A DNA stretch of 41,419 bases. Origin: a virus (taxonomy: Duplodnaviria; Caudoviricetes). The position numbers were made by a program, and so were the translations under genes. Below, one piece after another: positions 33,765 to 38,665 of this stretch; position 1 is the first letter of the stretch; each line of letters starts with the position of its first letter. The notes under the pieces are model-generated. The model did no database searches and was not told the origin of the DNA. It saw only the letters and a program-made list of their open reading frames with translations. Location: positions 1-41,419 of IMG/VR virus record IMGVR_UViG_3300040985_002201. One strand, 5' to 3'.

Positions 33765-34751
33765 TTATCTCTCATTCATTCTCCGACTAAGTTCAACAAA
33801 CGCGACCGCAGCCTGGAGCGGTACGACTCCATTTCCACAGGCCCGGAGCCTGTCCATCCTATGGGCCAGCCCTGAAGCATCTCTACAAAGCGCGGGTTCA
33901 AGCGTCGGGTCGAGCTCGAGGATGTCTCCCCAGATTGGGTCGCCTGGTCCGGGCGCGAAGATGGGGAGTTCCATCTCGGCGCCGCTCTGCCCAACAGGCA
34001 GTTTGTAGGCACATTGTCTGGTGGGCTGCCGTCCTTGTAATCCCGACTCGTGGGCGTCGGCCAACTCCCTGCTTCTCCGGCTAGTGTCTTGCCGTGAGTC
34101 TTGCCGTGGCTCGGAGCATTTCGAGTCGTCCTGTTCTCGTTCGCACTCGCCCTGGGCGTGGGCCACTGAGCAGCCTGACCCCCGAGTAGCAACTCGCCCT
34201 TCCTCTTCCCTCCCCGCGAGGCTTGCCCCCCCTGCATACCGCTGGGAGTGGGCCAAGAGGAAGAATCGGTCCCTTCGGTGGGAGGCACCCACGTCGGACG
34301 CTCGGAGACACAGCCATTCCGCATCATACCCGATTTCGGCCAACGACCCGAGAACTGCTTCGATTCCTCTGCTTGAAATAATTCCGGGTACGTTTTCGAT
34401 AAAAATAAGCCTTGGGCGTACCATGCGAATGACCATTGTGATGTCGTCCCAAATCCATCGCTCGTCGGCTTTGCCCTTACGCTTGCCGGCGACTGACCAT
34501 GGCTGGCATGGGAATCCGGCGACGATGCAATCGACTTGACCAACGAACGCAGAGCAGTCGAGCTCAGCGAGGTCACCGCACCAAACAGGGGCTGGTGCCA
34601 AGCTCTTGTCTTCCATCCGCGCCAAGAGGACGGACGCTGCGAAGGCTTCCCGCTCAACATAACCCAGAACTCTGGCTCCGGGGCGGGCGATTTCGACTCC
34701 AAGGTCGAGCATGCCCACCCCTGAGCAGAGAGAGAGGATGGTAAAAGCCAC
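33765..34751 (-). CDS. C5 DNA cytosine methyltransferase, alpha-type chain (motifs I-VIII and X)
   Basis: LSLCSGVG (I), GFPCQPWS (IV), IENV (VI), HRRDRFF (VIII), RLRACGNGV (X). GTG 34751 sits next to the upstream stop. Confidence 0.9.
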   Translation of the reverse strand: MAFTILSLCSGVGMLDLGVEIARPGARVLGYVEREAFAASVLLARMEDKSLAPAPVWCGDLAELDCSAFVGQVDCIVAGFPCQPWSVAGKRKGKADERWIWDDITMVIRMVRPRLIFIENVPGIISSRGIEAVLGSLAEIGYDAEWLCLRASDVGASHRRDRFFLLAHSQRYAGGASLAGREEEGRVATRGSGCSVAHAQGECEREQDDSKCSEPRQDSRQDTSRRSRELADAHESGLQGRQPTRQCAYKLPVGQSGAEMELPIFAPGPGDPIWGDILELDPTLEPALCRDASGLAHRMDRLRACGNGVVPLQAAVAFVELSRRMNER

Positions 34752-34753
34752 AC
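33776..34753 (-). CDS. Alternative-frame methyltransferase partner chain (beta-type; WPTP repeats and motif IX-like segment)
   Basis: Open for 325 codons over the MTase; contains WPKSGMMRNG, three WPTP and RRLNPRFVEMLQGWPIGW, which resembles motif IX. Confidence 0.7.
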   Translation of the reverse strand: MWLLPSSLSAQGWACSTLESKSPAPEPEFWVMLSGKPSQRPSSWRGWKTRAWHQPLFGAVTSLSSTALRSLVKSIASSPDSHASHGQSPASVRAKPTSDGFGTTSQWSFAWYAQGLFLSKTYPELFQAEESKQFSGRWPKSGMMRNGCVSERPTWVPPTEGTDSSSWPTPSGMQGGQASRGGKRKGELLLGGQAAQWPTPRASANENRTTRNAPSHGKTHGKTLAGEAGSWPTPTSRDYKDGSPPDNVPTNCLLGRAAPRWNSPSSRPDQATQSGETSSSSTRRLNPRFVEMLQGWPIGWTGSGPVEMESYRSRLRSRLLNLVGE

Positions 34754-35223
34754 TAAAAGGGTATCCCATCATCTTCAAAAGGCTTGGGGCCTCCAACCAA
34801 CGGCGCAGCTTCCAGGCGATGCTCAATATAGACATCCCCATAACCGTTCTTGGTCTTCTGTGAGACACGCAACTTTATATCCAGCAGTTGGCCGAGAAAT
34901 CGCTGACGATTATCAGCATCAGAGAACAACGCAATGGACTCCGGTGGCTTCACACCACAGCTCGCAATATCCTTTTTGAAAAAGCCCATATTGGTCTGGG
35001 TTTTGAGCATGCTTTGCTTCATAATCGTCCGCCCAGTATGTGGACCTTCGGCAATCTTCAGTACCCAGAACAGATACGGGTTGCCGTTCTCAGAAACGCG
35101 GAAGTCAACAGTGTGGATAGCTACCGTGTAACTACCATCCGGCACCTTGTCATGCTTTATGCCTGTCGGTGACGGTGCTGCCTCATAAATTTCATTCATC
35201 TGGTTCCAGTTGATTTCACTCAT
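34753..35223 (-). CDS. Single-stranded DNA-binding protein (DUF669-like)
   Basis: VPDGSYTVAI...SENGNPYL...EGPHTGR OB-fold pattern and acidic DDGIPF tail; GAGGG RBS before ATG 35223. Confidence 0.8.
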   Translation of the reverse strand: MSEINWNQMNEIYEAAPSPTGIKHDKVPDGSYTVAIHTVDFRVSENGNPYLFWVLKIAEGPHTGRTIMKQSMLKTQTNMGFFKKDIASCGVKPPESIALFSDADNRQRFLGQLLDIKLRVSQKTKNGYGDVYIEHRLEAAPLVGGPKPFEDDGIPF

Positions 35224-37402: not shown

Positions 37403-37429
37403 CAATAAATTCTTGCGGGTCTACTAGGC

Positions 37430-37597
37430 TCATAAGTTGCAGAGCTCGCTGTGGTATTCGCGCTTACCTGATTCCCATTTGGATGAGCAGAATTGACAAG
37501 TCTCAGCCTTGAGCTCCAGCTTCTCAGCCTTATCCCATTGGCCTTTGACCTTGGCTCTTAGAATTGCCGCTTCTAACGGACTGGTATTTCTGTTCAT
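37430..37597 (-). CDS. 55-aa protein with CxxC...H...C (not in the ORF track)
   Basis: MNRNTSPLEAAILRAK...CQFC...HSELCNL; AGAGGA RBS; stop lies at the edge of the repeat. Confidence 0.7.
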   Translation of the reverse strand: MNRNTSPLEAAILRAKVKGQWDKAEKLELKAETCQFCSSKWESGKREYHSELCNL

Positions 37598-37700
37598 GGT
37601 TTCCTCTGTTTTCGTGCGGGCTTACTAGGCTCACAGTAAATTCACAATAACATACTGACACACACAACACCTACAAAAAAACACGGTGTGTGCGGGACTA

Positions 37701-37868
37701 CTAGGCTCGTTTGTATTCGACTATCACCTTGCCGGCGGTAACCGTATCTTTTAGCAGCACTGCGAGCTCATAGGCTGACCTATCAGCTGCGCCTTTACAG
37801 TCATCTGCATTCCTGGGTTTATAAATACGTGGCGGGTTAAAATTTAAATCGTGGATTATTATTTCCAT
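37701..37868 (-). CDS. 55-aa hypothetical protein
   Basis: MEIIIHDLNFNPP...; AGAGGA RBS; TAG stop supplied by the repeat. Confidence 0.7.
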   Translation of the reverse strand: MEIIIHDLNFNPPRIYKPRNADDCKGAADRSAYELAVLLKDTVTAGKVIVEYKRA

Positions 37869-37906
37869 TTTCAATTCCTCTGTTTTTCTGTGCGGGACTA
37901 CTAGGC

Positions 37907-38308
37907 TCACTTATTATTTATTTCAGCTGTTGGAATGGTTTTTACAACGCCAAAGAGCTTGTAGGTTATGGTTTTTGTTCTCATTAAATAAACCGGGACA
38001 AGGAACAAAATCGGGACTAAACAACCTAAAGCAATTCCAATTAGAGAGGAATTCGGGTCCACGCATGCCGCAATACCATCCGTAATTGTGTTGATAGCCA
38101 TGCTTAAGCCACATGCAATGTAATGTGGTGAAATATTAAGCATTGCTAGTTTATCACCTAGAAATCCTTCAGGGTCTAAACCTTCCAGCATAAGCCATAG
38201 CATGGGCGCATTGTCAAAGAGCCCAAAGTCAAAATTGAGAATGTGGCGACACATTAAGTGTGCGATATAAGTTAAAATTGCGAGCGTTATACGTTGTTTA
38301 TTATTCAT
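37907..38308 (-). CDS. Membrane protein, TMEM65-like
   Basis: FGLFDNAPM ... INTITDGIA ... GIALGCLV motifs in hydrophobic helices. Confidence 0.6.
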   Translation of the reverse strand: MNNKQRITLAILTYIAHLMCRHILNFDFGLFDNAPMLWLMLEGLDPEGFLGDKLAMLNISPHYIACGLSMAINTITDGIAACVDPNSSLIGIALGCLVPILFLVPVYLMRTKTITYKLFGVVKTIPTAEINNK

Positions 38309-38600: not shown

Positions 38601-38665
38601 TTTGTTTCCTCTGTTTTTCCTGTGCGGGCCTACTAGGCTCTTGAGCTGTTCGGCCATTTTTTTTG

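Follow-up and report, generated by a model that had tools for sequence, protein, structure and literature searches.

This study considers a virus record of 41,419 bases, called here the window, in which terminase, portal and major head genes are recognised. The methyltransferase locus lies in a run of minus-strand genes for an exonuclease, a Sak4-like annealing protein, SSB, the methyltransferase, an unknown gene, a RusA-like resolvase and a transglycosylase; no restriction enzyme was recognised among the scanned neighbours. The methyltransferase gene (61% GC) is open in two frames of the same strand, to which I will refer as alpha and beta. The features of the locus are these:

33765..34751, minus strand: alpha chain ORF, 328 aa, with C5-methyltransferase motifs I-VIII and X, lacking motif IX
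33776..34753, minus strand: beta chain ORF, 325 aa, in the +1 frame, with an N-terminal peptide, an SGMMRNG hairpin, WPTP modules, a motif-IX-like block and a C-terminal helix
34749..34755, minus strand: twin-start junction TAGTGTG, comprising the SSB stop TAG (34755-34753), the beta GTG (34753) and the alpha GTG (34751)
34739..34753, minus strand: beta N-terminal peptide MWLLP, whose predicted docking site is alpha 53-59
34581..34598, minus strand: alpha APAPVW stretch, a signature of the subfamily and the predicted partner of the beta N-terminus
34494..34517, minus strand: alpha motif IV GFPCQPWS with the catalytic Cys82, invariant in 97 alignment rows
34313..34342, minus strand: beta WPKSGMMRNG segment, for which pairing with alpha strand 143-147 is predicted
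33974..34255, minus strand: beta WPTP array of three modules (30, 34 and 30 aa), likely the DNA-recognition part, ending at a fourth, degenerate W (33973)
33854..33901, minus strand: beta motif-IX-like block LNPRFVEMLQGWPIGW, with predicted contacts to alpha 305-312
33819..33851, minus strand: alpha motif X RLRACGNGVVP, in which G306 and N307 are invariant
34753..35223, minus strand: SSB gene (DUF669, phrog_378), whose TAG has one base in common with the beta GTG; upstream context, not a conserved partner

A first-pass annotation, made from the sequence alone, had described GTG codons at 34753 and 34751 set on the SSB stop and opening frames of 325 and 328 aa that end 11 nt apart, and a re-reading of the sequence agrees. 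It had also raised the alternative of a sequencing error. Contigs of all four public runs, one of them possibly the source sample, cover the junction and show no difference there, no indels are listed within the gene across the four, and none of the 18 substitutions in their contigs creates a stop in either frame. Assembly error as the cause of the two open frames is ruled out.

Elsewhere in the window, upstream of the recombination run, the minus strand carries, between short genes, five copies of an 18-base motif, GAGCCTAGTARNCCCGCA (37414-37431, 37615-37632, 37691-37708, 37891-37908 and 38623-38640), as compared to none expected in 100 shuffles. The motif is possibly a phage promoter or operator.

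Alpha bears the marks of a C5 methyltransferase: the SAM-binding motifs I (LCSGVG) and X, the Pro-Cys of motif IV, ENV of motif VI, RxR of motif VIII and a Rossmann-type fold. It matches PF00145 over residues 3-172 only (E 1.4e-31) and also phrog_363. In the AlphaFold2 model pLDDT exceeds 85 over residues 1-170; these residues and motif X fold well, with Foldseek matches to M.HhaI and M.HaeIII, and residues 188-257 (pLDDT below 50) are predicted to form a disordered spacer opposite the WPTP modules of beta. Beta matches phrog_1008 (E 1e-28), which is labelled DNA methyltransferase, as is phrog_363. There is no match to beta in Pfam or NCBIfam. Folded alone, beta gives no confident model (pTM 0.26) and no Foldseek match, and its profile found two chance-level matches only among the sequences of solved structures. 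The first-pass annotation was right that alpha has no clear motif IX and that a candidate block lies on the other frame: the IX pattern is found in 0 of 120 alpha and 86 of 120 beta protein-database matches, and motif X in 118 of the 120 for alpha. I take the beta block to be motif IX from its likeness to the consensus and from its predicted placement against motif X.

Co-folding of the two window chains gave scores of 0.88, 0.88 and 0.87, as against 0.00 for all three controls, the best included; the mark used is reached by 116 of 157 solved pairs and by 2 of 215 mismatched pairs. The runs have at least 76% of their contacts in common, and partner pLDDT is at least 61. In the predicted complex, beta 290-300 lies on alpha 305-312 and 41 (motif IX on motif X), beta 141-144 is paired with alpha 143-147, beta 319 packs on the last alpha helix, and beta 1-8 forms part of the interface, where beta 3 is in contact with alpha 56 of the APVW stretch. 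The score may be inflated by likeness to solved methyltransferases, which may explain the IX-X contact, less well the N-terminal contact, and several of the top contacts join near-equal residue numbers of the two chains, which could be a bias of the model. The folds and the co-fold were built on alignments of protein-search matches, not on the fetched loci described below. The prediction supports binding of alpha to beta, as backing and not as proof.

Homologues were collected as 317 loci in addition to the window. Of these, 263 were parsed, 5 of them with a broken alpha, and the rest were dereplicated to 175 representatives. Of 3000 synonymous recodings of the window alpha, none left beta stop-free (9.7 stops on average), and 1.5% did so over the stretch up to motif IV alone. 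The claim that homologues keep the second frame open is well supported: from motif IV+20 to IV+90, beta is stop-free in 171 of the 175 representatives, as compared to 20.8 expected, and contains 5 stops in place of 445, the expectations being approximate since they use codon weights from flanking long ORFs. The third (+2) frame is interrupted by stops in each of the 80 first-round loci, and a single-chain relative (L326, one control only) has 23 stops in its +1 frame. As beta is stop-free across the representatives and stops abound in the other frame and the control, dual coding is a trait of the family and not a peculiarity of this phage.

A subfamily of 116 representatives begins beta with M(x)W-L-Y-x-P, a motif of the Trp-hydrophobic-aromatic type. 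Here the overlap does run along the whole length, as the first-pass annotation had it: beta is open over motifs I-IV in 115 of the 116 (13.8 expected), the 5' part contains 1 stop as compared to 288 expected, and all 14 members below 53% GC (44-52%) are open over the same motifs. The remaining 59 representatives have 150 stops over motifs I-IV, against 191 expected. About one third of all representatives have stops in the 5' part of beta and require an internal start. M-x(0-2)-W-hydrophobic begins 94 of 120 beta protein-database matches (with starts as called by gene finders). The Trp is placed anywhere from 3 to 18 codons ahead of motif I, and this variable distance argues that the N-terminal peptide is not dictated by the sequence of alpha. 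Full-length beta accompanies the APxW signature of alpha in 113 of 117 cases and occurs in 11 of 55 cases that lack it, a comparison confounded by kinship.

The subfamily's share of the family is inflated by the seeding of the second-round searches with loci that have the junction; the first search, which was unseeded, gave the N-terminal motif in 5 of 42 representatives. A quick tree of 107 rows (45 motif-bearing rows taken at random, plus chosen ones) places most members in one weakly supported clade and a few elsewhere. The counts of members are therefore not independent events, and the tree shows clustering without settling the origin.

In 109 of the 116 subfamily members a distance of 2 or 5 nt separates the two starts: alpha starts 2 nt after beta in 81 and 5 nt after it in 28, and before it in 6. 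A GTG at +2 arises automatically wherever a Trp codon comes directly after a start codon (Met-Trp), and other tests of the junction were therefore used, namely the presence of other nearby starts and the identity of the free base. A start codon for alpha is present at the W codon of beta in 105 of 108 loci, in 37 of which this is the sole nearby start, and among the 27 M-x-W loci, 16 have A and 3 have C at the free position, as compared to 27% each in the background. A Shine-Dalgarno core stands ahead of 68 of the 116, mostly 5-9 nt before the beta start with a peak at 6-7 nt, and both starts lie within its reach. The proposal that both N-termini arise at one junction thus extends to a large subfamily, in which the junction and the N-terminal peptide of beta are conserved; Synechococcus phage Ssp-JY39 is a carrier in culture. 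A second type of junction, RTGAATGAG, is found in L004, L008, L014, L139 and their relatives, where alpha comes first and beta (MSYIFSRALV-like) follows 4 nt later, right after TGA.

At the junction in the window there is no Shine-Dalgarno core within 4-18 nt, and the alpha frame has further upstream starts at 34769, 34772, 34778 and 34796, of which the TTG at 34778 stands 11 nt behind GGAGG. With these extra starts available, the alpha start in the window is likely, not fixed. The first-pass annotation had also coupled both chains to one upstream stop, and this part of it does not carry over to the relatives. Among the 116, 79 have a long upstream ORF whose end falls between -15 and +11 nt of the starts and 37 have none; SSB lies upstream in none of 115 relatives and was rejected as a conserved partner; and at each of the four other junctions examined in the gene run of the window a stop and a start overlap. 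It follows that the twin start is conserved, whereas coupling to the SSB stop is a local matter; re-initiation after that stop is plausible in the window.

Substitution rates were taken from 66 disjoint close pairs, 42 with beta fully open and 24 with an internal start. Over motifs I-IV, the third position of alpha changes at a rate of 0.159 in the full-open pairs, as compared to 0.316 in the internal-start pairs, and over motifs IV-VIII the two groups are alike (0.222 and 0.233). In the variable region it is the wobble position of beta that changes most in both groups (0.215 vs 0.146 and 0.149; 0.382 vs 0.221 and 0.225). Counts of indel phase were set aside on account of noisy nucleotide alignments.

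The modules of beta, 0 to 7 per protein and mostly 28-39 residues long, have constant ends (W-P-T-P-x-A and L-x-x-x-A) on either side of a middle that varies. One run contig (X2) lacks 90 nt corresponding to beta 169-198, one whole module, and both frames stay open. The small domain of C5 enzymes contains both motif IX and the recognition domain (PMC5944983), and so the modules that adjoin motif IX are a natural candidate for recognition. A profile of 270 WPTP modules compared with the recognition regions of four other C5 enzymes did not rise above shuffles, and for that reason the equation of module with recognition domain stays inferred. Since substitutions in the region follow the beta frame and alpha is predicted to be disordered there, I think it fairly probable that the target-recognition part sits on beta, a point absent from the first-pass annotation. 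A scan of the window for avoided words finds GATC (strongly: 114 vs 319, both strands), GGCC, CGCG, TGCGCA and GTCGAC scarce and TGCGCA, GTCGAC and ATCGAT absent; it names no target site.

An arrangement of this kind is known from M.EcoHK31I of E. coli (YGGCCR), described in two papers as an alpha/beta C5 methyltransferase in which alpha has motifs I-VIII as well as X and beta has motif IX in another frame (PMC2836561, PMC3404938). These papers report that the N-terminal part of its beta matters for chain association, deletions lowering binding (PMC2836561), and place the recognition domain on alpha, in one paper as "predicted" (PMC2836561, PMC3404938). I set the window beside M.EcoHK31I by published description, not by sequence alignment. 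The window alpha likewise has motifs I-VIII and X without IX, with the IX-like block on a second frame of the same DNA, and the claim of a two-chain C5 methyltransferase like M.EcoHK31I gains from the stop avoidance in relatives and from the predicted complex. As far as those descriptions go, however, the beta of M.EcoHK31I lies wholly inside alpha, whereas the window beta starts 2 nt before the likely start of alpha and is equally long, and recognition is assigned there to alpha, whereas the disordered alpha 188-257 and the selection on the beta frame favour beta in the window. In contrast to M.EcoHK31I, the window gene is an orphan and lies among phage genes for recombination and replication. 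Because it appears to work like M.EcoHK31I but departs from it in two stated features (beta inside alpha, recognition on alpha), the window enzyme is a variant and not a member. M.AquI (CYCGRG) consists of two polypeptides split in the variable region, the second having the distal variable region, IX and X (PMC3404938). The window enzyme resembles it in having two chains, the second with a distal variable region and IX, and differs in that its motif X is on alpha. Streptomyces phage Vash (L085, gp32/gp33) is an M.AquI-like split within the family of the window enzyme: its alpha stops after motif VIII, and its beta frame, open over alpha IV-VIII, has modules, IX and X.

Multispecific C5 methyltransferases of Bacillus phages are single chains in which tandem short variable-region modules are gained and lost; the window beta has tandem modules too, in what is probably an enzyme of two chains. 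In the Rz/Rz1 spanin of lambda, a phage gene in the +1 frame encodes a product that binds the product of the outer gene. The arrangement of partners is like that predicted for the window and the proteins are different, and Rz1 is embedded, with its own internal start.

Database records mostly call one of the two frames. The record of Paenibacillus phage Bloom annotates both nested genes, and in Acidovorax phage Alfacinha1 the CDS annotated as cytosine methyltransferase (gp46; L081:2499-3632) is the beta frame, the catalytic frame being unannotated. In the accessible text of PMC6070908, both genes of a nested pair are given and the overlap is not discussed. A description of this phage family or of the twin start was not found in the literature searched, whose coverage mostly excluded subscription journals. 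The two-chain principle is already known, and the conserved twin start is what is added.

Other arrangements were seen among the collected loci. In dcm genes from plasmids or prophages of Bacillus cereus, Enterococcus faecalis and Listeria (L322:1598-2173, L323:1598-2164 and L324), IX and X lie in the main frame, and yet the +1 frame has no stop for 177-192 codons spanning motifs II-VIII at 39-42% GC. This +1 frame is matched by the beta profile and by phrog_16143, and its end, S-L-x-D-I-L-E...E-K-[YF]-F-L-S, resembles the segment after motif VIII of ordinary enzymes; it is a different two-frame split. A Bacteroides fragilis plasmid (L325:1601-2131) has a minimal form, with a 244-aa alpha and a 177-codon beta frame holding one module-like stretch and an IX-like block. 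Frame swaps near the 3' end occur in L303, where alpha has both IX and X and beta has modules only, and in L138, L100, L041 and L049, which may be real variants, decay or assembly errors.

How might these observations be explained? A beta that is an unexpressed shadow of alpha, or an artefact of assembly, would owe something to the GC content of the gene, which lowers the frequency of stops, but low-GC members keep beta open, the +2 frame is interrupted in all 80 first-round loci, and the stop avoidance, the substitution pattern, the agreeing run contigs and the co-fold all speak against it, so that its probability is close to nil. One might also imagine a single polypeptide made by programmed frameshifting, passing from alpha motifs I-VIII to the modules and IX of beta and back to alpha for X. 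This restores the usual order of motifs, and frame-swapped relatives are known (L138, L303, L100), but it is hard to reconcile with the position of the IX-like block next to motif X on the DNA, in a different frame, both frames being constrained there. Moreover, beta has its own conserved start, and 96 loci, in which 410 stops were expected, have an alpha frame without interruption across the variable region (a partly circular test, as the loci were picked for an in-frame X). I consider a single frameshifted chain very improbable.

The other two explanations accept both chains and differ in how beta or the pair is initiated. Beta might be made mainly from an internal start (e.g., the ATG-ATG at beta 144-145), as in M.EcoHK31I, with the 5' frame a leftover. 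The third of representatives with 5' stops fit this, and internal Met codons are reported to have rescued M.EcoHK31I beta in vivo (PMC2836561). The near absence of stops from the 5' part in the subfamily, the halving of wobble substitution in alpha over motifs I-IV, the conserved N-terminal peptide and the spacing of the Shine-Dalgarno peak relative to the beta start all weigh on the other side and make a mainly internal start improbable. Alternatively, termination at the upstream stop might be the mechanism that defines the family. The overlap of the SSB stop with the beta start in the window, the lack of a Shine-Dalgarno core there, and the 79 members with a long ORF ending near the starts are in its favour, but the 37 with none, the 68 with a Shine-Dalgarno core, the upstream gene that is other than SSB in 115 of 115, and the routine overlaps in the gene run of the window make it doubtful as a family mechanism; such coupling may be limited to this phage alone.

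The reading preferred here, and which I consider likely, is that two fully overlapping frames with starts 2 nt apart give a catalytic alpha and a beta that make up one orphan DNA cytosine-C5 methyltransferase. Taken separately, a two-chain enzyme is highly probable, and production of beta at full length from the junction is probable. Alpha would bind SAM and carry out catalysis, with the spacer at 188-257 read through only to reach motif X. Beta would clamp alpha at three sites: through its N-terminal peptide on APVW, through its hairpin on strand 143-147, and, at motif X, through the IX-like block together with the last helix. Ribosomes would pick either start within one initiation region, which in most relatives would be a common Shine-Dalgarno site and in the window re-initiation after the SSB stop, and in this way both chains would come from one message. 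The WPTP modules on beta likely read DNA, and gain or loss of whole modules would alter specificity while leaving both frames intact. To judge from its orphan status and gene context, the enzyme likely protects replicating phage DNA from host restriction. As to origin, the frame may have shifted after motif VIII, with a start in the +1 frame making good the loss and later relocating to the 5' end; the occurrence of IX and X on either frame in relatives (L085, L303, L322-L324) fits such a reshuffling of frames.

For the subfamily as a whole, I lean slightly towards a picture in which, widely among phages, one site with two start codons serves both subunits, the docking peptide is overprinted on the SAM-binding half, and specificity resides in swappable WPTP cassettes on the second frame, in which case the recognition domain of two-frame enzymes, among them M.EcoHK31I, has perhaps been placed on the wrong chain. 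If true, this would be a kilobase-long, end-to-end overlap on the same strand in which both products form one enzyme, and it would offer a natural test of how bacterial ribosomes choose between start codons 2 nt apart. Gene callers take one frame, sometimes the non-catalytic one, and many annotated phage methyltransferases would then be inactive if cloned in recoded or 5'-trimmed form. The family would also allow one to test directly which of the two chains determines specificity, and would supply enzymes already split by nature for use in targeted methylation.
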